Origin: a bacterium | GTDB taxonomy: Bacteria > Zhuqueibacterota > Zhuqueibacteria > Residuimicrobiales > Krinioviventaceae | Assembly (NCBI GenBank): GCA_963674595.2 | Contig: CAXXFV010000023.1 | Location: forward strand, 886,647-950,646 | Reading direction: 5' to 3' | DNA length: 64,000 nucleotides | Part shown: positions 13,885 through 27,219 of the stretch, one piece after another | Layout of the letters: each line of letters opens with the position of its first letter | How positions within the stretch are numbered: position 1 is the stretch's first letter | Program-made: the position numbers and the translations under genes | The notes under the pieces: model-generated | Seen by the model: only the letters and a program-made list of their open reading frames with translations | Told to the model about the DNA's origin: nothing | Database searches by the model: none

Positions 13885-14031
13885 ACCCTAATAGTAATAG
13901 CAGTTGCCTATCCCGGCAAGGGTTGTATGAAACCGGATCAGGCCGGATTGACGTAATACTGTAGATTATGCGCGATCGGTGATGGGTGAAGGAATGGGTT
14001 AAATACGAGTCCAGCCGTCGAATTGTGCGAA

Positions 14032-14816
14032 TCATGCAGGAAAGAAACTTTGGGAAGTGAAAAAGTCGGGACCAGGGATATTTACGCGCCCAGGGGCCGA
14101 TTTTGACTATCTTCATCATTTGGATTTCGGACCCGGCGTATAACGCCGGAGGCGTGTCCGCTAATAGCCCCAGTTGACGACGAACCGAAGGTTCGGAGGA
14201 GCCTGGGGTATGGAGATACCTCCCAACCTTTTCCAGCTCTGGAAGAGCGACATAATTCTCCGAAATATCGTTATTTCCTCACCTCATACGTTGTTGAGTA
14301 AGAGGGGATCAATGACTCAGTCTTTTACGCAGAATCTACAACACGTAATTTTCAGTACAAAATCCAGAGATAACTGGATCGATACATCATGGGAGAAAGA
14401 CCTTTATTCCTATATTGGAGGCATCTTGAAAAGGATCGACTGTAAATTACTTACTGCCGGAGGTATACCTGATCATATCCATTTATTGACATCAATTAGC
14501 AAAAACCTGACTATCCCTGAAGTTGTCAGGAAAATTAAATCATCGTCAACAAACTGGGTGAGGAAAAATATCCGGAATAAAAGAGGCTTCGCCTGGCAGA
14601 ATGGTTATGCGGCATTTTCGGTTAGCAATTCAAAGGTCGATCAGGCGCAAAACTACATCACGAATCAGCGCTATCATCACAAAAAGATAAATTTTGAGGA
14701 AGAATTAAAACAATTTCTCGATAAACACAGAATTCCATATGATGAGAGATACTTGAAGGGCTGATATTGCTGGCTCTTCTGCCGCCCTTCCAGGGCTTGG
14801 GTTGTGTTGTTATGAA
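14032..14816 (+). mobile_element. IS200/IS605-type (RAYT-like) element, copy 1, with hairpin-rich flanks
   Basis: Near-identical to the reverse complement of 31806-32588; left flank has ACGCC-GGA-GGCGT, GAACC-GAA-GGTTC and GCTCT-GGA-AGAGC hairpins; right flank truncated after GCCCT-TCC-AGGGC. Confidence 0.85.
14312..14764 (+). CDS. tnpA: IS200/IS605 family Y1 (HUH) transposase
   Basis: HVIFSTK, DHIH (HUH), FAWQNGY, NYITNQ (catalytic Tyr); GAGGGG RBS before ATG 14312. Confidence 0.93.
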   Translation: MTQSFTQNLQHVIFSTKSRDNWIDTSWEKDLYSYIGGILKRIDCKLLTAGGIPDHIHLLTSISKNLTIPEVVRKIKSSSTNWVRKNIRNKRGFAWQNGYAAFSVSNSKVDQAQNYITNQRYHHKKINFEEELKQFLDKHRIPYDERYLKG

Positions 14817-14880
14817 ATGCGAGATCATAAAAGGAACTGTGGCAATTTATCACCACGCCGAACATCTCACATTTTGTATC

Positions 14881-14908
14881 TCACTCCTTACTCATCACTC
14901 CTCACTTC
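14881..14908. repeat. Short heptamer tandem repeat
   Basis: TCACTCC TTACTCA TCACTCC TCACTTC. Confidence 0.55.
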
Positions 14909-14933
14909 TGAATTCATAACGATTGAACCGGAG

Positions 14934-15713
14934 TCAGGCCTTCACTGCCACGGATATCATGCGGTTATTCATGAATCCATAATCACCCTTCAAATGGTGA
15001 GCAGAAAAATTCTTGAGGATGCTGATATCCGCAAATTCCGACCGAGAAACCAGATCTCGAAGGCTGTTCTCATCGTAGAGCCTTATTGAATAGCTTTCGT
15101 CCCGCACCAGGCCTTTTCCTTTGCTCATTACCATTTCCCTGGTGTTGAGAGAATCCTCCTTCATTTCCCGCTGCCGGCAGACTACGATATCATCACCGGT
15201 TTCATGCCAGGATGTGGGACTGAAAGTATCCCTTACGAAGTCCCCGTCAGCGACGTCTATAAGCAGCCTTCCGCCCGGAACAAGTACCCGCCTGGCCTCA
15301 TTGACGATCAAGCTGTCTGCTTCAGCATCGCTGATATATCCCAGCGAGTTCCCCAGAATACAGACAACATCAAAACTCTCTTCCGGCAAGCCGGTATCCC
15401 GGGCGTCGCCCTGGATCACCCTGATCCTGATGTCGTTTTTCTTCGCCCTGCCGCGGGCCTTTTCAACCAGGGTATGGGAATAGTCAAAAAGGGTACAGTT
15501 CTCAAATCCCCGGGAACAAAATTCAAATGTATGCCGGCCCTGCCCCCCGCACAGGTCAAGAATTCGGTGCTGGGAATTCAACGACAGCAATTCGCAGATC
15601 AAATCCACTTCCCGCCTGGTAATACTTTCATCACCGACTGAGCGGGAATCGGTTATTAGATAAATATCGTCAAACAGGGTTTTCCACCAGTCTTTTTTGA
15701 CGTCAATACTCAT
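14934..15713 (-). CDS. Class I SAM-dependent methyltransferase
   Basis: Start moved to ATG 15713, 1 nt after the upstream stop; ILDLCGGQGRH motif I; QGDAR; FDVVCILGNSLGY; VLVPGGRLLID. Confidence 0.92.
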   Translation of the reverse strand: MSIDVKKDWWKTLFDDIYLITDSRSVGDESITRREVDLICELLSLNSQHRILDLCGGQGRHTFEFCSRGFENCTLFDYSHTLVEKARGRAKKNDIRIRVIQGDARDTGLPEESFDVVCILGNSLGYISDAEADSLIVNEARRVLVPGGRLLIDVADGDFVRDTFSPTSWHETGDDIVVCRQREMKEDSLNTREMVMSKGKGLVRDESYSIRLYDENSLRDLVSRSEFADISILKNFSAHHLKGDYGFMNNRMISVAVKA

Positions 15714-15714
15714 A

Positions 15715-17127
15715 TCAAACCAGCTCCGATCCAAACCCGAACAAACCATCAGAGGCAATAATGGCATGGGAGCCCCCCCAGGGATTCATTCTGGCGATTT
15801 CCAGTTCCTCTTCTTCGATCCGGACAACAGCATCCAGTTCACCTGAAAGCCACATTCGTTCCAGGGTCAGGCAGTCAGACCACATTTTCCCGCAGTATTT
15901 CTCAAGGGCTTTAATCTGTTTCAAGGTTATAAGCCTGGGCCTCAGGGCCAGCCGGATAGGCCCCAGCAGATAGGTAAATTCATGCTCCAGGGCCATTGCC
16001 TCCTGGAGCCTGACCGCATCGGTGATTTCATCAATGCCAGCTGACATGATCACATCATTAATCCTTTTTGCTGCTTCACCTACGGGCATGTCAGATTCCA
16101 GTACGGCCAGGGGTTGAACTCCTCCTCCGCTGCCTACATTGGTTGGGACTCCCCCGAAGCGTCCCATAAAACCGAACAGTCCGTCCGGCCCGGTAAGGCA
16201 CCGGAAATCAGTCTGCACCTTTTCGATCAGCAGCCCCTTCTCATTCAGTGCGGGGATCTCCTCGGCCCACAAATCAAGAGGAACCTTTTCCTGGACAATG
16301 TAATCTTCACTCCCCAGGGCCAGTCCCACCGCCTCGTCCGCGCTGGTATTCACGCCCCCTACCCGGACTCCACGACCGGAATATCCTCTCTCCGGCTTCA
16401 ATACCAGCCTGTCCCAATTGGACCTGGTCCATTCAACCAGGTCATCAATGGTATCGCCTGAAGGACTTTCAGTGCGCCGAGGATAAAACTGCCTGGTCCA
16501 GGGAGTCCGCTCAACAATTTCTTTATGAAAATTCTGCCGATGGCTGCCGGTGATAATTTCATACATGCTTTTTACATTTATCGGCTCTGTTCCCCGGGGA
16601 TTTATAATCCGGCCCTCTTTTACTGCCTGCAGGACCGGCTCAAGCCCATGTTTTCGGTGCAGAGATATCAGCACATCAGTGTTGAAATCCATAAAAATCG
16701 TTGAGACAGGATTCCCTTGCCAGCATACTTTTCCCCTGGATATTTCCAGTTCCTGCGGAGCCATAAGCCTGCCCGAAATCCCCTCTATCGAGTCAAGATG
16801 CCTGGCCAGGTTTTTATTCTCCGTCACATCTTCCAGAGTTTCTTCCTCAGCGATAACAACAATCAGTCCAGGATTGGAACCCTCGCGGCCGCGGTGGGCG
16901 TCTACAAGCATTTCAACAAAGCCGTTGACCGGGAAAAGCCTGGGGTGGTTAAAATCAAGATTGATCCCTGATGGGCAGCACTTCTCAATTCTCTCCCACA
17001 CAGCTTTCCCAATTATCTGGGTTATTCTCTGGTAATCCCAGCCTCCCGGGCTTCCCAAATTCCATTCAGAGTGATATCCGTTGAATTCTTTCAATTTAAC
17101 AAGTACCTTATTTGTCAGTTTTCTCAA
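15715..17127 (-). CDS. ATP-grasp amide/peptide ligase of the circularly permuted (CP_ATPgrasp_2 / glutathionylspermidine synthase-like) type, with rearranged segment order
   Basis: EWNLGSPGG, PWTR, LVLKPERGYSGRGVRVG, YIVQEKVP, NVGSGGG; TTG start overlaps the end of the DUF885 gene. Confidence 0.75.
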   Translation of the reverse strand: MRKLTNKVLVKLKEFNGYHSEWNLGSPGGWDYQRITQIIGKAVWERIEKCCPSGINLDFNHPRLFPVNGFVEMLVDAHRGREGSNPGLIVVIAEEETLEDVTENKNLARHLDSIEGISGRLMAPQELEISRGKVCWQGNPVSTIFMDFNTDVLISLHRKHGLEPVLQAVKEGRIINPRGTEPINVKSMYEIITGSHRQNFHKEIVERTPWTRQFYPRRTESPSGDTIDDLVEWTRSNWDRLVLKPERGYSGRGVRVGGVNTSADEAVGLALGSEDYIVQEKVPLDLWAEEIPALNEKGLLIEKVQTDFRCLTGPDGLFGFMGRFGGVPTNVGSGGGVQPLAVLESDMPVGEAAKRINDVIMSAGIDEITDAVRLQEAMALEHEFTYLLGPIRLALRPRLITLKQIKALEKYCGKMWSDCLTLERMWLSGELDAVVRIEEEELEIARMNPWGGSHAIIASDGLFGFGSELV

Positions 17128-18748
17128 TAGCCCTTAAACGCTGTTCGATCCGGCTGAAAGGAATCTCGCCTCCATCCAGCAGATGTTCATGAAACCTCCC
17201 CAATCCCAGCCCGAATCCAAACTTATTCCTCAATTCCCTGATTTCATAGCTGCCCAGGCAGTAGCAGAGCTGATAGCCGGGATTCAGGCGGAACCTGTCA
17301 ATCTGGACCAATGCTTCCCGTTCAGTAAAGCCCACTTTCTGAAGAAGTTCAGTGGATCCCCCCCTGTCCAGTTTACCGGTCGCTGTCCCAACATCAATCT
17401 GGCAGCGGGCCGCTCTCCAGAGCCGCCTCCTGAAATCGATTAACCTGTCTTCCGGCTCTATAACATATTCATAATCTGACAAAAGGGTTTCAGCATATGA
17501 AGCCCAACCTTCATAAAACAAGGGAGATTCAATCTGCCTCCTCACTGGATTCTCCAGTCTCCGGCGTTTTCTATCCAGGAGATAATGCCCCGGAATGGTC
17601 TCATGGGCTGTAAGAAACCGGAATTCTCTGTGCAGTCTCCGGGCATACCGCTCCCCCTCAGACCCATCCCCGCCGGATCTCCCGGTTGTTATATGAAAGT
17701 AATCAGTTTCACCCTTTCCATCAGCCAGGGAGGCGGCAAAGGAGGCTGAGCCGCGGACTGATCTGAGATAGGCAGGTGTTTCGGTTACGCGCAAAGCAGA
17801 ATATTGGCTGCTGTCAGCCAGGCCCTGCTGCCTGAAAAAAACCTCTATCCTTTCAGCCTCGCTGCTGTACCGGGAAATAATCCCTTCATTTCCCGGGTTA
17901 TCCGGGACTATTTTTTCGTAGACTTCCTGCCAGGGAAGATCCGGTTCTATTTCTTTTCCCACGGCTTCAAGGTTTTCCAGGTTTTCATTCCAGTCATCCA
18001 GGCCGATCTGGAAAATCTCATCAAGGGACCTCCCACACTTGAAGTGATCCCTCAGGGAGGACTCAATTGTATCTGTGAAAAAATGATCGTCAGGACATGG
18101 TTTCACAGATAATAAAAACTTTCTGAATTCCTCGACAACTCCGGTCGCCCTTTTTGACCAGGCCCCTGGCCTGGATCCCTGACTCATTTCAAGACCCGCC
18201 AGTGCCGCGCTGCTTTCAAGATATCGCTTACAGTCAGCAATCATCGAAACTGCGTACCCATAATAAGACTCCGGGACCGTGACCAGGTTCTCAATGCCCT
18301 GGTTTAGAAGGGTCGGAATCGCATCGAGCCTGCTCAAGACACGTTCAACAAGTTCTTTCGATGATTCCGCCGGTTTATTAAGAGCATGGTCCAGGCCTAT
18401 AAAAACTATTTTCAGGTACAAAAGGGGGTTGTTTCGATAGGATTCCCTGGCTTCAAACTCCACAAGGAAACCATCAATATTGGCAATAAGCATTTCCAGG
18501 TCTATCCGCTCTTCAAGGCCCAGGCCCTCCCGGGATCCAATAGCTGAAAAACCGGCCCGGAAATGCTTCAGTTCATCAATGGCATCCTTGATTGAACCGG
18601 CATCAAGGATATCCAGCCTATCGTAGTATTTCGCGGCGTCCCAGGCCCTGGGAAGGAAGTGAAATTCATCGCTGGCGCACATCACCGGAAATCTCTTGGC
18701 TACGAACGCAAAATACTGCTCTGCGAGCTTGTTCAACATTAGACTCAC
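17108..18748 (-). CDS. DUF885 family protein (metallopeptidase-like)
   Basis: AHETIPGH, FYEGWASYAE, LWRAAR..DVG, PGYQLCY..G, FHEHLL..G.IP; no signal peptide. Confidence 0.88.
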   Translation of the reverse strand: MSLMLNKLAEQYFAFVAKRFPVMCASDEFHFLPRAWDAAKYYDRLDILDAGSIKDAIDELKHFRAGFSAIGSREGLGLEERIDLEMLIANIDGFLVEFEARESYRNNPLLYLKIVFIGLDHALNKPAESSKELVERVLSRLDAIPTLLNQGIENLVTVPESYYGYAVSMIADCKRYLESSAALAGLEMSQGSRPGAWSKRATGVVEEFRKFLLSVKPCPDDHFFTDTIESSLRDHFKCGRSLDEIFQIGLDDWNENLENLEAVGKEIEPDLPWQEVYEKIVPDNPGNEGIISRYSSEAERIEVFFRQQGLADSSQYSALRVTETPAYLRSVRGSASFAASLADGKGETDYFHITTGRSGGDGSEGERYARRLHREFRFLTAHETIPGHYLLDRKRRRLENPVRRQIESPLFYEGWASYAETLLSDYEYVIEPEDRLIDFRRRLWRAARCQIDVGTATGKLDRGGSTELLQKVGFTEREALVQIDRFRLNPGYQLCYCLGSYEIRELRNKFGFGLGLGRFHEHLLDGGEIPFSRIEQRLRAIEKTDK

Positions 18749-18836
18749 CGGCTCCGGAAATTACTTCAGGATTGACAACCCATTAATTATTGAACCATAA
18801 AACCATAAAGGAATCAGTAATTTCCGACGAAACCAA

Positions 18837-19820
18837 TCAATAATACTGCCGGTGGCAGCATCGGTAGCAAACCGGATGGGAAATGCCGTTTCTCTGGATG
18901 TTCTGCCTGAATTTCCTTTGCGCCTTGCTGTTCCATATCCTGTTGAGCTTTTCATTTTTGGCGTTGCCGATAACCGCTTCAATCTCTTCACAGGCTATGA
19001 CATCCCCATTGGGCTGAATAAAAAGCACCAGCCACGGCAAGACACATTTATTCCGGTTCAGGGGGAATTCAGGATTGAGGTAGTAGTCCTCGATATCCTT
19101 TATTTTGATATCGGGGAAAAAAAGCACAGGCTTACGCAACTTGCCCTGTTTTAGTTCTGTCACCTGTTTCTTCAGGAGTACCGGATCAATTCCAGGGTCC
19201 CTGTCCTTTGTGAAGATAGCATGCTGAAGGGTGATACAGCGGGCATGACTTCCCTGAAATCTTTCAACTATTTCTATCAGGCTCCCCTGGTTTTCAGTGT
19301 TAATGGGGCAAGCCAGGTTTATATACATCCTGTTATCCCGGTCGAGATCTCTAAAGAGATCCAGGGCGGAAACCTGCTCCTCGAAATTCATGGTGTTCAG
19401 GGACATGTTGATTTCCATCCGGGCGCCGCTGTCGACAAGAGGTTCAACAAGATCCTTCAGGCCGACACCATTGGTGGTCATGGAAAGCCGGTATCCTTCA
19501 CCGGAGAGATATCTCACAATCTCAAAAAAATCACTGTTGATTGTAGGCTCACCGCCAAAAAGGTGTATCCGGGGTTTTCGCCAGAAAGAACGCCTGATAT
19601 TTTTCTCAATCAGCTTTATATCCTCTAGGGTCATATCAGGATGGGTGCTTCTCCGGTCTCGAGACTGGAAACAAAACGGGCAGCTGAGGTTACACCGGTA
19701 GGTTAGGATCATAAAAACGGCCAGGGGTGGAATCGGACTGTATCCGCCAAACAGCCTCACCACATCAAGCAGCTTCCCGGCGCGCGTATTAATAAAATTC
19801 TGCTGTTCTTTCAAGTTCAT
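18837..19820 (-). CDS. Radical SAM protein with SPASM/twitch domain
   Basis: CNLSCPFC; FGGEP; TTNG; C-terminal CVLPW...GDVIAC...GN...IWN...CYRCC. Confidence 0.92.
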   Translation of the reverse strand: MNLKEQQNFINTRAGKLLDVVRLFGGYSPIPPLAVFMILTYRCNLSCPFCFQSRDRRSTHPDMTLEDIKLIEKNIRRSFWRKPRIHLFGGEPTINSDFFEIVRYLSGEGYRLSMTTNGVGLKDLVEPLVDSGARMEINMSLNTMNFEEQVSALDLFRDLDRDNRMYINLACPINTENQGSLIEIVERFQGSHARCITLQHAIFTKDRDPGIDPVLLKKQVTELKQGKLRKPVLFFPDIKIKDIEDYYLNPEFPLNRNKCVLPWLVLFIQPNGDVIACEEIEAVIGNAKNEKLNRIWNSKAQRKFRQNIQRNGISHPVCYRCCHRQYY

Positions 19821-20070
19821 AGTATTCCAACAGATCCCAATGATAAGGCAGGCAAGAGATGGTTAAAACCCTTTACCTAATTATTTCAGGTCTGGTTTCT
19901 GTAAAGGATCAGATAGGATAGCAGCCAGTAAGCGGATTCTTGCATGTCAAACAACTGACATTCTGACATTTACCATCCAGCACGGCTGATCATCGATAGA
20001 TTCCCCGAAAAGAGAATCGAAATGGTTGGAAAAATCCTTATTGCGCTTTTTGCTCCCCGGACCAGGAGAA

Positions 20071-20730
20071 TCATTGAGAACTGCTGATAGTTTCCAGGAC
20101 AGTGTCCAGCTTTTCAGACTCCAGCAAAAGCTTGATTATCCTGCCCTCCAGAGGTTTGTAGTACCTCCCTCCAGTAACTATCTTCTTTGAGAAGTCAATT
20201 TCATCACTTTTGAATTTTTCAATCACTTCATCAAAAACGGGCAGAATCAGGCTAAGCATTTGTTTTTCATTAAACCTGTAGCTTTCCTGGTAATTGATCG
20301 GAAATCTTCTCTGGGACACAACCCGTCCGGCGTCGATCTTTTCATTCATCACGTGAGCACTTACCCCGCCCTGTCTCTCACGGTTTAAAACAGCTTGGGG
20401 AAGGGGGTGTCTCCCCCTGTAGTATGGCAGGATTCCTGAGTGAATATTTATTATCTTCCTGTCAAGGTATTCAATGATTTCTGGGGGAACAATGATTCCA
20501 AAACTACAGACAATGGTCAGGGAAGGGGGCGGTGCAGAAAACACCTTCTCAATCAAATCGCTTTTTGTTTCAATGAATGCATGCTTCACCTGGTTTTCCT
20601 CGGCAAAACCCGTCAGCTCTTTCGGACATTTGTCTTTTTCAAAGATGAATCGTGAAATGCCCTTGCTATATTTCGATATGACAATTTCACTTACCCTTCC
20701 CCAGTAACATATATCAGTGTTGTTTTTCAT
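20071..20730 (-). CDS. Formyltransferase (FMT-like, probably sugar N-formyltransferase)
   Basis: INIHSGILPYYRGRHP; IDAG; next to WbqC. Confidence 0.85.
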   Translation of the reverse strand: MKNNTDICYWGRVSEIVISKYSKGISRFIFEKDKCPKELTGFAEENQVKHAFIETKSDLIEKVFSAPPPSLTIVCSFGIIVPPEIIEYLDRKIINIHSGILPYYRGRHPLPQAVLNRERQGGVSAHVMNEKIDAGRVVSQRRFPINYQESYRFNEKQMLSLILPVFDEVIEKFKSDEIDFSKKIVTGGRYYKPLEGRIIKLLLESEKLDTVLETISSSQ

Positions 20731-20767
20731 ACAGTTCTATAGATTCGGCATAACCTCCGGCCTTCAG

Positions 20768-21475
20768 TCAACTCCTTAGGGAGGGACAAGAATTCCGTAT
20801 GTAGCTGGAAGCGAGGGGCCCACAATTGAAAATCAGATCCATAATGGAAACCTGGTGGTCAAATACTCCATGCAGTTGCTTGTATTCCGGATATTCATAC
20901 CTCATGTATTCGATTGCGATATCGTTTTCTCTGAATTTTTCTGGATCGATATAACTCCTGGCCGAGGGGCCAGAGACATAGCAACGGGCACCCAGCCTTT
21001 TACATATTGCTATTATCTTTTGCTCCTTCCCCTCAGAGACAGGAATCTCTGCCATTGTTATGAATTCAGTCCTGATGCCAAGGATTTCACAGAGCAGTTT
21101 AGTCGAAAAGATGTTTAATTCAGAGAGCTTTTCCCATTTGTTTTCGAGGTAGATATTGTCAATGATCCACCGGTACTCGTCAAAGAAAGGGGCTTTTGCA
21201 TAATTGACCTGAAATGCGCAGTGGTGCTTTCTCTGCCAATTGTAACTCGTTTCGATTACCACATCTGACAATTTCTGTCTGAATCTTCCTTTAGTTTTTA
21301 CCGGTACTGTGATCCACTTGGGCCCGTGACAGGTTTTAATCCTGTTCCGATTTCTCCAGTCACCTTTCGTGTATTGGACTCCTTCATAGAACACAAAGGT
21401 ATCGACTCTGTTAATCAGGTCAAAAACCCCCTTCCAGGGAAGGTAATTGGACTGTAATATTGCTGTCCTGCCCAT
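20768..21475 (-). CDS. WbqC family protein
   Basis: ILQSNYLPWKGVFDLI, QYTKGDWRNRNRIKT, NYAKAPFF, YVSGPSA, YKQLHG..SIMDLIFNCGP; start moved to ATG 21475. Confidence 0.92.
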   Translation of the reverse strand: MGRTAILQSNYLPWKGVFDLINRVDTFVFYEGVQYTKGDWRNRNRIKTCHGPKWITVPVKTKGRFRQKLSDVVIETSYNWQRKHHCAFQVNYAKAPFFDEYRWIIDNIYLENKWEKLSELNIFSTKLLCEILGIRTEFITMAEIPVSEGKEQKIIAICKRLGARCYVSGPSARSYIDPEKFRENDIAIEYMRYEYPEYKQLHGVFDHQVSIMDLIFNCGPLASSYIRNSCPSLRS

Positions 21476-21858
21476 AAGGTTCTCTTTTACTTTTTTCCCG
21501 ATATTACGGCTGCATAAATCCCTGGTTTGATTGTCGGGCACACCCAAGACCCTATCCGAACATCCTTAAAGCTCCAGGCACCTTTCCGGCCCTGTCATAC
21601 ATTAGGTCCTGTTGTTCTTTTAGATTCATGCCCTTCCGACAGGTCCCAATAATACCGTACCAACAGCCTGTAATGAAAACCTAATTGATTTTTAAATCCT
21701 GGAATCCAGACGGGGAGGGATTAATGCCATGGGTATTGCCACTTATGTCTGTGTTTTGTCCCATTGACACCGAACCTGACGGCGTTTACTCTCTAGAAAG
21801 AACTGTTAAAAAAGGCCCATCGTAATGACGGCCAGATTTCCCGGAAAAGAGAAAACCC

Positions 21859-24654
21859 ATGATAAACAGAAGCCTGATCGCAACAGTTATAATCACAATG
21901 ATTTCGATTGCACCTCTCCTTGCCGACCAGTCTATCGATACTGAAGCAACCCAAAAAATAAAAGAGTACACCACTGATCCCCAGTACCTCACTCCTCTGG
22001 TGGACCACCTGCCCGCGTCAGAAAACGTTCCCGCTCCCCATGAAGTCCTGGGTTACGTTACCGGAGCTCCCGGCCACATGACCTATTACCGGGATATTGT
22101 CCGTTATTACAGGGAACTGGAAGAGGCCAGCGGCAGGGTTAAAATCTTCGAGGTCGGGAAAAGCCATGGAGGCAATACAATGATTGCCGTTGTTGTCGGG
22201 AGTGAAGACAGCATCACCAATCTGGACAGATACCGGTCCAATACCAAAAAGCTGTCTGATCCCCGCCTCTGCGATGAAGCGCAGATGAAAACTCTTCTCA
22301 AAGAAACCAAACCAATCTACATGCTCACCGGAGGGCTGCATTCACCGGAAACGGGAAGCCCGGAAATGCTCATGGAAATGGCCTTCCGCCTGGTGGTTGA
22401 AGACAGCCCGATGATCAGGGAAATCCGTGAAAACGTGATAACAGTTATCATTCCGGTCCTGGAAACTGACGGCTGGAACCGGCAGGTGGACTGGTACTAC
22501 CGCCACACCAAAAAATTTGGGGAAGATGAGTGGGACGACATACCTCGCACATCTCCTCCATTCTGGGGGAAATACACCGTTCATGACAATAACCGTGACG
22601 GCATAATGCTGAGCCAGCCTTTGTCCAAAAACATGAACAAGACCTTTTTCATGTTTCATCCGCAGGTTGTGCATGACCTGCATGAAAGCATTCCCATTCT
22701 CTACATAAGCACAGGAACCGGACCCTACTATCCGACAATGAGCCCGATTGTACGGAATGAATGGCAATGGCTGGCCTTTAATGAGGTGACCCGCATGACC
22801 AGCCTGGGCGTGCCAGGTGTCTGGACCTGGGGCTTCTTTACCGGATGGTTTCCGGGTTACGGGGCCTGGCCGGGAAATAACCACAACGCCATCAGCCGCT
22901 TCTATGAGACTTTCGGCAATGCCGGGGCCAACACCTACGAACGAATCATCAGCCAGACTCCCGGTGAGGGACGGACTTCCGAGGAATGGTACCGGCCCCT
23001 TCCGCCGCCGGCCAAGACACTCTGGAGCCTGAGAAACAACACCAATATAATGCAGAGCGCCTGCCTGGTGGCCCTGGAATTCACAGCACGCCACCGGGAC
23101 ACAATCCTGGAGAATTTCTGGAAGAAAGGACACAACTCCATATTGAAGGGTGAGTCGGAAAAGCCATATGCCTGGATCATTCCCACAAAACAGAATGATC
23201 CGCTTGCCGCCCGGCGCATGCTGGATATTTTCAGGATGCACGGCATCGAGATTCAACAACTGACTGAAGATTTTTCAGTGGATGAGACCGGCTATCCTGC
23301 CGGAAGCCTGGTTGTACGGATGGACCAGCCTTACCGCAATTTTGCCAAAACCCTGCTTGAAAAGCAGGAATGGCCGGAAAAAAGCACAACCCGTCCCTAT
23401 GACGCGACAACCTGGACCATCAGCTTGATGCTGGGAGTCGAGACTTCCTGTATTGAAGATGAATCCATACTGCAGGCGCCCATGCGAATGCTCGACATTG
23501 ATCCTTTCAAGGGGGAACTGCAGGAAGTATCCTCCCCAACGCGGATAGTGATCCCGCCCCAGGGAAATGCGACTCTGGCTGCCGTCCTGGCCCTTCAGGG
23601 AGAAGATATCAGGATTACAGACGAGGATATTGAAACGGAAGAGAGCATCATCCCTGCCGGCAGCCTGGTTCTCGGTGCTGAATCCAGAAGCAAAATCGAG
23701 AAGCTCTGCAGTGAATCAGGGATCAAAGCTATCGCGGTTAACCGGGAGATCCCTGCCGCCCGCAAGCTGGCCCTGCCCAGGCTGGGGCTTTATTCCGCCT
23801 GGTTCACAACCCAGGACCCCGGATGGGCCAGATACGCGTTGGACGCCGCCGGGATTCCCTGGACCTGGATTACTAAAGAACGGGTTCGCCAAGGCGGGCT
23901 GAACAGTGCATTCGATGTAATAATTGTTCCCCACCATGGAGGACGAACCAGCGGCCTCGCCTTCCTGCGGGGCATTGACTCGCGTCACAGCCCTCTCGAC
24001 TATAAACGGACCGAGGAATTTCAGTTCCTCGGCTCCCCGGTTGAATCAGGAGACATAACCGGGGGACTGGGACTGGAGGGGCTGGCGGAGATCGAAGGAT
24101 TCGTCAATGAAGGGGGAATCCTGATCACCCTGGGATCGGGAAGCCGTTTGGTCACCGACTTCGGAATGCTTTCCGGCGTGACTGCCAGGTCAGCGTCCGA
24201 CCTGGTCTGTCCCGGAACCCTGGTTTCCGGCTGGGTAAGGCAGGAGAACAATCCTGTCGTTTATGGGATCAGCGAACATCCGGCTATTTACCAGAGCAGC
24301 ATGCCGGTATTTGAAGTGGCTAAACACCTTCGTTCGTCTGTTGTAATGCAGTTCGGCACCGAACTTCCCAAGGATGTTATGAACGAGATGAGTGATGAAG
24401 ACAAAAAAGCGCACAAAAATATGCAGAAGGAACACTCATTAAGAATCAGCGGGCTTCTGAAAGGCGAAAAAACACTGGACGGAACAGCCGCGATTGTCGA
24501 TGCCCCGCTTGGCAAGGGCCGGGTTGTTCTCTTTGCCTATAATCCTCTATATCGCTGGATGAGCCAGGCCAGTTTCCCAATGGTATTCAATGCCATACTC
24601 AACTGGGATGCTCCGGGAAACCTGGGGAGCCAGCCCAGCCAGGATGGGATGTGA
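21859..24654 (+). CDS. Secreted M14 family zinc carboxypeptidase
   Basis: Signal peptide; GLHSPE, HDNNRD, HDLHE; C-terminal GATase-like domain (LEGLAEIEGFVNEGG). Confidence 0.9.
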   Translation: MINRSLIATVIITMISIAPLLADQSIDTEATQKIKEYTTDPQYLTPLVDHLPASENVPAPHEVLGYVTGAPGHMTYYRDIVRYYRELEEASGRVKIFEVGKSHGGNTMIAVVVGSEDSITNLDRYRSNTKKLSDPRLCDEAQMKTLLKETKPIYMLTGGLHSPETGSPEMLMEMAFRLVVEDSPMIREIRENVITVIIPVLETDGWNRQVDWYYRHTKKFGEDEWDDIPRTSPPFWGKYTVHDNNRDGIMLSQPLSKNMNKTFFMFHPQVVHDLHESIPILYISTGTGPYYPTMSPIVRNEWQWLAFNEVTRMTSLGVPGVWTWGFFTGWFPGYGAWPGNNHNAISRFYETFGNAGANTYERIISQTPGEGRTSEEWYRPLPPPAKTLWSLRNNTNIMQSACLVALEFTARHRDTILENFWKKGHNSILKGESEKPYAWIIPTKQNDPLAARRMLDIFRMHGIEIQQLTEDFSVDETGYPAGSLVVRMDQPYRNFAKTLLEKQEWPEKSTTRPYDATTWTISLMLGVETSCIEDESILQAPMRMLDIDPFKGELQEVSSPTRIVIPPQGNATLAAVLALQGEDIRITDEDIETEESIIPAGSLVLGAESRSKIEKLCSESGIKAIAVNREIPAARKLALPRLGLYSAWFTTQDPGWARYALDAAGIPWTWITKERVRQGGLNSAFDVIIVPHHGGRTSGLAFLRGIDSRHSPLDYKRTEEFQFLGSPVESGDITGGLGLEGLAEIEGFVNEGGILITLGSGSRLVTDFGMLSGVTARSASDLVCPGTLVSGWVRQENNPVVYGISEHPAIYQSSMPVFEVAKHLRSSVVMQFGTELPKDVMNEMSDEDKKAHKNMQKEHSLRISGLLKGEKTLDGTAAIVDAPLGKGRVVLFAYNPLYRWMSQASFPMVFNAILNWDAPGNLGSQPSQDGM

Positions 24655-26133: not shown

Positions 26134-27219
26134 TCAGGGGAAAAATACCATTTTCCGCTTTTCCTCATCCCATAATTTCAGATGGGGGCAGGATAGGCTT
26201 TCCAGGAGTGTTACCGGTCTTTCTATCTGCACCACGGGAACCGAATCGTAACACCTTTTGAGATTATAATTGGGAATTAACGGATTAAGGTGGTGTATAT
26301 GGTGATAACCGATATTACCTGAACACCAGCGCAGTATGGCAGGCATCCGGTAGAAGGAACATCCTTCCATTGAGGCTTTCCACCTGTCCCAGTCCTCTCC
26401 CCTGGCCCAATATCCATTGGAAAACTGGTGCTGTACGTAAAACAGCCAGATTCCCGCCGCACCGGCCATCCAGATCACCGGTATCTGTATCAGGAAATAA
26501 GTCCACAATCCAATAAACTGGGCTGCCGAAAAGACCAGCGCCAGTATCAGCAGATTTGTGAACATGACGCTTACTATTACTTTTTTACCCGCCCTGCGGT
26601 CTGGATACCTGTTGATGATCAGGAACAGAATTAAACCACCCAGGAAAAACAATACCACTGGATTTCGGTAAAGCCTGTAAAGGCCACGCCTCCATTTCGA
26701 TAATTTCCTGTATTCGGCTACCGTCAGTGTCCAGACATCGCCATATCCGCGCTCATCCAGGTTGGCAAAGGAAACATGATGCCTGAGATGGTTGTACCGC
26801 CACTCCGCGAAGTCAGTAAACACGAGGACACCGCAAATGTAGCCAAAAAAGCTGTTGGCTTTCTTCGAGCTGAAAAAGGAACCGTGCGCGCAGTCGTGAA
26901 AAAAAATAAAAATCCTGACCAGGAAAGCGGCAGCGGGCACTGCCAGCAGTAATGTCCATAAATAGGAATATCCCAGCTCGACTGATCTGATCATCAGGTA
27001 CCAGGTACAAAAATACAGTACCAGCGTGGATGTCAACTGCCAGATGGCTTTCCAGTTTTCGGATTGCCGGAACGGTGCCAACATCCTGTAAATATCAGAT
27101 ATCGAAATGCCGGGATTCCTCCCGTTTGTCGAATTTTCGATCCTGTTTGGATTATCCTCAGTCATAATCATAATCCTTAACGACTGATTCCTGTTTTGGA
27201 AGATTCGAGCTTCATTCAA
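26134..27219 (-). CDS. Membrane fatty acid desaturase (Bacillus Des-like)
   Basis: Three His boxes HDCAH, HLRHH, HHIHH plus YVQH; true start probably a little downstream. Confidence 0.93.
   Translation of the reverse strand: MNEARIFQNRNQSLRIMIMTEDNPNRIENSTNGRNPGISISDIYRMLAPFRQSENWKAIWQLTSTLVLYFCTWYLMIRSVELGYSYLWTLLLAVPAAAFLVRIFIFFHDCAHGSFFSSKKANSFFGYICGVLVFTDFAEWRYNHLRHHVSFANLDERGYGDVWTLTVAEYRKLSKWRRGLYRLYRNPVVLFFLGGLILFLIINRYPDRRAGKKVIVSVMFTNLLILALVFSAAQFIGLWTYFLIQIPVIWMAGAAGIWLFYVQHQFSNGYWARGEDWDRWKASMEGCSFYRMPAILRWCSGNIGYHHIHHLNPLIPNYNLKRCYDSVPVVQIERPVTLLESLSCPHLKLWDEEKRKMVFFP

Follow-up and report, generated by a model that had tools for sequence, protein, structure and literature searches.

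We analysed a window of 64,000 nucleotides of bacterial DNA (the whole stretch, positions 886,647 to 950,646 of contig CAXXFV010000023.1, assembly GCA_963674595.2) and observed that three adjacent genes on its minus strand belong to a conserved unit. They encode a soluble, zinc-metallopeptidase-like protein of family DUF885 (17108..18748, 546 aa), a putative ATP-grasp amide ligase (15715..17094, 459 aa) and a class I S-adenosylmethionine (SAM) methyltransferase (14934..15713, 259 aa), called here the methylase. The ligase and the methylase are an obligate pair, while the DUF885 protein is an accessory, dispensable member. Judged by its structural model, the ligase is an ATP-grasp enzyme in a differently permuted order, which is not the known circularly permuted (CP) order. 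On balance we lean towards a reading in which a small N-methylated dipeptide or amide, cytoplasmic and probably anionic, is the product of the ligase and the methylase and is turned over by DUF885.

The initial annotation had placed three open reading frames (ORFs) here, and we found all of them where it had put them, with 1 nt between the ligase stop (15715) and the ATG of the methylase (15713). It had also placed the DUF885 stop inside the start of the ligase (TTG 17127), which is true for the longest ORF only. The likely start is TTG 17094, since the database's own gene call (P0001) gives the same 459 aa, the consensus of 50 homologues opens with MKxFxGYHSEWN and AAGG sits 5' of this codon. 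Therefore the first junction would be a gap of 13 nt with no overlap. The corresponding gaps at the two nearest loci are 17 and 13 nt. For DUF885 the start may be GTG 18748 or ATG 18739. A hydrophobic leader or lipobox was absent from all three proteins in a crude hydropathy and lipobox check, in agreement with the earlier description of DUF885 as a probably cytoplasmic protein with metal-ligand-like motifs and no signal peptide.

We assessed the neighbourhood of the ligase in the best 80 of 400 relatives found in a genome scan (63-77% identity). At least 700 nt of flank was required on each side; the upstream flank fell short of this in 12 loci and the downstream flank in 8. The methylase was found 3' of the ligase in all 72 testable loci and DUF885 was found 5' of it in 58 of 68. 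Both were present in 53 of the 61 fully testable loci, and because of this recurrence the coupling of the genes exceeds chance. Such a neighbourhood search had been named in the initial annotation as the test of its proposal; the proposal was not refuted, as ligase homologues do adjoin both partners. In the other 10 of these 68 the ligase had no DUF885 next to it; they fall on at least three branches (the clade of L035, L042, L043, L048 and L055, the pair L022 and L028, and L069), so DUF885 is dispensable. By NCBI label the 80 loci comprised 43 Thermodesulfobacteriota, 14 titled Deltaproteobacteria, 4 Pseudomonadota, 4 Spirochaetota, 2 Aquificota, 1 Acidobacteriota, 1 Lentisphaerota and 11 unassigned. 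The whole trio is present in the cultured strain Desulfospira joergensenii DSM 10085 (L061). The window clustered with L001 and L002 in all three protein trees.

We did not observe a fourth gene family that accompanied the trio across the 80 loci; the flanks varied (citrate synthase, transporters, desaturase, transposase and others). In 166 flanking and intergenic segments, neither a short ORF nor a DNA motif was common beyond close relatives. The earlier remark was that no precursor peptide is visible nearby, and no conserved precursor peptide, of graspetide type or other, and no conserved RNA was found with the trio in these segments.

Locus L053 contains a second ligase paralogue (L053:2666-4060, 47% identity, motifs intact) directly 5' of DUF885, which gives an operon with two ligases; this second ligase clusters with a divergent subfamily (P0127). 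A TehB-like methyltransferase of ~185 aa lies 5' of a ligase gene in the related Desulfobacterales loci L035, L042, L048, L053 and L055, four of which are without DUF885, and a UbiE-like methyltransferase lies 5' of the ligase in L022 and L028. Intra-operon gaps of 200-460 nt (L006, L012, L013, L014, L042, L043, L047, L053 and L073) contain repeats of short units, inverted or in tandem and imperfect, which gives the impression that small repeat elements insert between the genes of the trio. DUF885 is split across frames in L021, L033 and L057, and so is the methylase in L021 and L033, which may be due to assembly errors.

The closest fold to the ligase is that of glutathione synthetase (GSS), yet the ligase gave no match in Pfam or NCBIfam, and no match to PDB sequences was better than E 0.56. 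The cut-off of CP_ATPgrasp_1/2 (PF04174, PF14403) was reached by none of 50 ligase members (best E 0.019, one member), and a wider ligase profile reached 3n6x at E 0.093 only. A feature search (Atlas) with a stored ligase homologue gave leads only, to GSH-synthase, GspS, AnkG and CP-ATP-grasp clusters. The AlphaFold2 model of the ligase (pLDDT 85.7, pTM 0.86) had ATP-grasps as all of its top structural matches (best Z 15.9, rmsd 3.7, 304 aligned), and it has the pre-grasp, lid and C-terminal domains of this fold. The best were homoglutathione and glutathione synthetases, YgiC/YjfC, 3n6x, GspS and Cp1B (Z 11-16), then RimK, LysX, GshB and Ddl (Z 10-11).

Residues 1-333 of the ligase superposed on the C-terminal part of GSS, YgiC, GspS and 3n6x (Z 13-16), and residues 76-455 superposed on RimK, GshB and LysX from their N-terminus (RimK 1-254, Z ~11). 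A profile search recovered unpermuted relatives of ~460 aa (E 1e-17 to 1e-22), whose residues 190-470 match ligase residues 64-330. When a profile of ligase residues 335-459 was compared with 28 unpermuted relatives, it was placed N-terminal to the core in 27 of them (E < 0.001 in 14 of 28), and HHalign of this segment against their N-terminus gave a probability of 97.9 (E 4e-13, 116 columns). Residues 9-38 aligned weakly to columns 144-174 of these relatives. The profile of the unpermuted relatives matched 3n6x at E 1.3e-15 and Cp1B at E 4e-10. Since the model superpositions and the profile placement of residues 335-459 agree, we regard the order as permuted: the chain opens at the E-x-N strand and closes just past the Asp strand, with the cut between two metal-binding strands. 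Full-length ligase members kept this order down to 26-30% identity. Longer or fused ligase forms (820-2340 aa) were not found among 8000 candidates, which is weak evidence. This chain order was not found described in the literature searched on permuted ATP-grasps, including an excerpt of PMC2034487; the amidoligase review of Iyer et al. 2009 might mention the family. The initial annotation had called the protein a CP-type ATP-grasp. The ATP-grasp fold with intact motifs was upheld, but the CP type had no library support and the protein is differently permuted.

The motifs of the ligase run from the strand E10-W-N12, which comes first, through K175, K233, Q268, D296-x-R298, R312 and N319-V-G-S-G-G-G to the strand A447-S-D449, which comes last. 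We checked 17 positions in a set of 82 sequences (the window, the 80 loci and one paralogue), and 16 were invariant in 82/82; E10, N12, K175, K233, Q268, D296, R298, R312, N319 and D449 were each invariant throughout. The Mg/ATP set of ATP-grasps (E-x-N, strand Asp, two lysines, Gly loops) is present. The roles of these residues are presumed by analogy, partly with GshB and GSS. R-x-D was invariant in 25/25 unpermuted relatives; the permuted ligases have A-x-D instead (82/82), and the arginine of D-x-R is present. The same pairing is seen in 3n6x (G-V-D and D-L-R), so it looks like the strand supplying the arginine was swapped rather than the arginine lost. Four full-length relatives of the same order (P0122, P0123, P0134 and P0140) are without several Mg/ATP residues; they look inactive and are possibly inactive partners or regulators. 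The family is common: of 8000 proteins scored, 1903 reached E <= 0.001, and there were 400 matches in species-level genomes. A plasmid search with the ligase gave no match. Plasmid searches with the methylase and with an unpermuted relative gave distant matches only, and the trio was absent from the four regions inspected.

The CP ATP-grasps (PF04174/PF14403 with 3n6x, eukaryote-type glutathione synthetase, GspS/YgiC, Cp1B) have the fold in common with the ligase (Z 11-16), and in 3n6x, like in the ligase, a small residue replaces R of R-x-D and the D-x-R arginine is present. However, their first ~130 residues (helices and the Asp strand) correspond to the C-terminus of the cassette ligase, and the CP_ATPgrasp_1/2 order of helices, Asp strand, E-x-N strand, pre-grasp and lid is not that of the cassette ligase. 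The usual partners of CP_ATPgrasp_1/2 are alpha-E, transglutaminase, NTN peptidase, GCS2 and M20. They were not conserved beside the cassette in the 80 loci; GCS2 was found once among 58 flanking genes scanned (L017). The classical ATP-grasps RimK, LysX, GshB and Ddl are collinear with ligase residues 76-455 and have D-x-R in common with it, but their last strand (E-x-N) is N-terminal in the ligase. In 3k1t, a GshA-type ATP-grasp with another shifted start, chain residues 14-423 align to ligase model residues 1-416 (Z 9.7) and the alignment stops before the Asp strand (446-453); 3k1t may have a further, different cut point.

The methylase of the window matched Methyltransf_25 of Pfam (E 9e-19). 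It falls in the group of NmbA, glycine/sarcosine and CypM methyltransferases, which are mostly amine N-methylases. Its best solved match was 9RI2, over residues 7-236 (E 1.2e-14 with a single sequence and 2.6e-29 with a profile; next best 1.8e-17). Glycine/sarcosine N-methyltransferase was matched at a profile E of 2.2e-16, and NF051855 remained below its cut-off. 9RI2 is NmbA, the bacillithiol N-methylase. According to the excerpt of PMC12719100, it acts on the cysteinyl amine of bacillithiol, not on glycine or glutathione, and requires an aminoacyl-amide. Among the flanking genes scanned (flanks only) none was BshA, BshB or BshC.

A Ddl-like ATP-grasp (PF07478) was fused to the methylase in 35 of 38 longer homologues (P0272-P0306), in which the methylase domain is mostly 39-44% identical. 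These fusions occur in bacteria and at least one archaeon, and they are named only D-alanine-D-alanine ligase or methyltransferase. The remaining three homologues were a protein composed of a ligase fragment and the methylase (P0271), a fungal protein with another fused domain (P0307) and a distant match; P0271 is probably a frameshift join and was left out of the fusion count. The cassette methylase and the fused methylases (e.g. P0273, P0302) have N-terminal and cap residues in common, while the ligase part of the fusions is classical Ddl-like and is fused instead of adjacent. This methylase subfamily is thus paired with two distinct ligase families, and this pairing is the best clue that the compound it methylates is made, or used, by an amide ligase. 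No publication on a Ddl-methyltransferase fusion was found in the literature searched.

DUF885 matched PF05960 at E 2.5e-46 (159.8 bits, cut-off 32.4). The metal-ligand-like motifs pointed out earlier, HETIPGH (382-388, H382-E383-x-x-P-G-H388) and EGW (413-415, beginning at E413), were both present and invariant in 49/49 aligned DUF885 proteins. The model of the protein (pLDDT 91.3) matched the three solved DUF885 structures 3o0y, 3u24 and 3iuk at Z 29-32. Next, at Z 11-14, were M32 carboxypeptidases, M3 oligopeptidases (oligopeptidase F, Dcp, neurolysin) and ACE; a common arrangement of helices can be enough for scores in this range. Pfam places DUF885 in a zinc-peptidase clan (PMC12572635, excerpt). 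A peptidase activity of DUF885 is presumed.

Gene order, conservation, folds, motifs and the permutation are what these data show. In the pathway that we propose on this basis, the ligase would activate a carboxylate with ATP and Mg, by way of an acyl phosphate, and would couple it to the amine of an amino acid, as its fold and motifs suggest; R312 would be the likely anchor of the acceptor's carboxylate. By analogy with the nearest characterised methylases, the methylase would put one or more methyls on the free amine of the N-terminal residue of the product, and this cap would guard the product from aminopeptidases. DUF885, as an accessory enzyme, would cleave the amide from the carboxylate end and so control or recycle the pool. 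Both the methylase and DUF885 have many conserved arginines, which suggests that the substrate is anionic. The product would most likely be an anionic dipeptide-sized solute, such as an osmolyte, a redox buffer or a storage compound.

A known system with the same logic and different genes is the NAGGN operon asnO-ngg-dipeptidase. Excerpts of PMC5563000 and PMC8070244 describe in it a dipeptide that is synthesised non-ribosomally and capped at its ends, with a dipeptidase gene adjacent, and in PMC5563000 the dipeptidase is proposed to balance the pool. In NAGGN the capping is by N-acetylation and amidation, whereas the cassette has a methylase, another ligase family and DUF885, and Ngg, which acetylates and ligates, and the amidotransferase AsnO are missing from it. 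At one locus only, L017 (L017:3589-6596), genes for an asparagine-synthase-like amidotransferase and a GCS2 ligase lie 3' of the methylase, which recalls NAGGN and gamma-glutamyl pathways.

A number of observations weigh against the N-methylated dipeptide or amide. The cassette enzymes are structurally similar to known ones at 11-18% identity. The identity of the methylase to NmbA is ~24% (about 54 identities in 223 columns, counted by hand), compared with 35% used for NmbA homologues in the excerpt of PMC12719100, and the methylase is therefore a relative of NmbA and not its orthologue; the cassette is without a bsh gene. The fold group of NmbA includes C- and O-methylases as well (Table 2 of the same excerpt). 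DUF885 has HE-x4-H, a variant which the solved DUF885 proteins also have, and not the HExxH of clan MA zinc peptidases, and no assay of any DUF885 protein was found in the literature searched, part of which was in excerpt. The scan used the motifs around D136 and N319 as its patterns, which in part guarantees that they come out as conserved. The 80 loci are mostly related genome bins and the counts are thus not independent. Locus L038 has no methylase within its 511 nt downstream flank, and no transporter, regulator or precursor-supply gene is conserved with the trio. In favour of the unit, tree distances of the three proteins go together over 47 taxa, with correlations of 0.76, 0.88 and 0.77 against maxima of 0.28-0.46 in 500 permutations; shared host descent alone would also yield such a correlation.

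The same three activities could be arranged in other ways. The ligase might add a temporary amino-acid handle, on which the methylase acts before DUF885 frees a methylated amino acid or amine. Such handle logic is known from EgtA/EgtC of ergothioneine, BtrJ/BtrG of butirosin and LysX/LysK. The presence of three activities per operon with DUF885 first in 58/68 loci would fit this arrangement, as would the resemblance of DUF885 to carboxy-terminal peptidases. We nevertheless consider it unlikely: at the ten loci with no DUF885 beside the ligase the methylase was kept wherever testable, although DUF885 may sit elsewhere in those genomes. The ligase might instead extend the C-terminus or a side chain of a protein in the style of RimK or tubulin ligases, with DUF885 trimming the tag and the methylase capping it. 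Structural matches of the ligase at Z 10-11 include RimK, LysX and TTL, and the unpermuted relative P0266 is joined to the beginning of an M32 carboxypeptidase, whose fold is related to that of DUF885; this may be a frameshift join. The ligase is also the slowest-evolving member of the trio (mean tree distance 0.74 vs 1.16 and 1.93), as a protein target could impose. Small-molecule ligases, however, score higher than these three (Z 13-16), and relatives of the methylase act mostly on small molecules or peptide N-termini. Neither a conserved short ORF nor a gene for a target, a carrier or alpha-E turned up in the 166 segments; for want of such a conserved gene protein tagging becomes less likely, and we give it a low probability. 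The initial annotation had proposed that the three enzymes build, methylate and reverse or mature a small peptide, compatible solute or protein tag; the conserved unit stands, but the peptidase is dispensable and the tag has lost ground.

Different chemistry is a doubtful alternative as well. The methylase might come first, with a free amino acid as its substrate, or might methylate O or S, and the ligase might capture the product, for example in detoxification or metabolite salvage. Glycine/sarcosine N-methyltransferase is among the next best matches of the methylase, and the acidic residues E83, E92, D136 and D140, all of them conserved, may serve to hold an amine that is methylated and cationic. 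On the other side, NmbA, which needs an aminoacyl-amide and does not methylate glycine, outscores the glycine methylase by 13 orders of magnitude. We also considered, with little confidence, that the product could be an N-methylated thiol of low molecular weight, or a redox buffer of this kind, in sulfate-reducing Desulfobacterota. Here the ligase would join a cysteine-containing unit and an amino acid, the NmbA-like enzyme would methylate the amine and DUF885 would recycle the product. This idea arises because the nearest characterised relatives are thiol-pathway enzymes, glutathione synthetase by fold and NmbA by sequence, but the identity is low and no cysteine-pathway partner is conserved. 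No thiol term for sulfate reducers was present among the literature matches listed. If the thiol reading were true, molecules of this class would also be reached, by convergence, through the methylase-Ddl fusions.

A weak terminator-like stem-loop (14839..14856, minus strand) lies ~80 nt past the methylase stop; terminator-like sites numbered 12, barely above shuffled counts (mean 8.1, sd 3.0). An IS200-like Y1 transposase gene (14174-14764, plus strand) converges on the end of the trio. On the same strand as the trio and 88 nt 5' of DUF885 there are radical SAM/SPASM, formyltransferase and WbqC genes (18837-21547), which are probably surface-sugar genes. They were ruled out as members of the system, as no homologue of them was found beside the trio in the 80 loci; the two radical SAM matches adjoin an anaerobic ribonucleotide reductase gene. 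A desaturase gene of the window (26134-27219, minus strand) has 60% identity to the fatty-acid desaturase L002:1180-2223, which is directly 5' of DUF885 in L002 (an Acidobacteriota bin), while in the window ~7.4 kb separate the desaturase gene from DUF885. Rfam gave a single sub-threshold match in positions 14000-22000, inside a gene. Promoter-like sites in the window were at chance level and the repeat search gave short, chance-like pairs only.

In the literature searched there was no publication on DUF885 together with an ATP-grasp or on the neighbourhood of the trio, and no characterised pathway that matched it, in line with the earlier suggestion of an undescribed system. The permutation of the ligase, the methylase subfamily dedicated to ligases and the DUF885 link are new as far as this literature goes, while the logic of the pathway is of an already known type. 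In summary, the ligase represents a common enzyme family missed by Pfam and NCBIfam, and its chain order, different from that of the ATP-grasp structures compared, makes it a clean natural case of fold permutation. The trio suggests what the substrate of DUF885 may be, a hypothesis open to test; three structures of this family are solved, and the literature searched gave no function for it. The trio is found mainly in sulfate-reducing bacteria and their kin, and it points to a methylated metabolite in the sulfate reducers of sediments.

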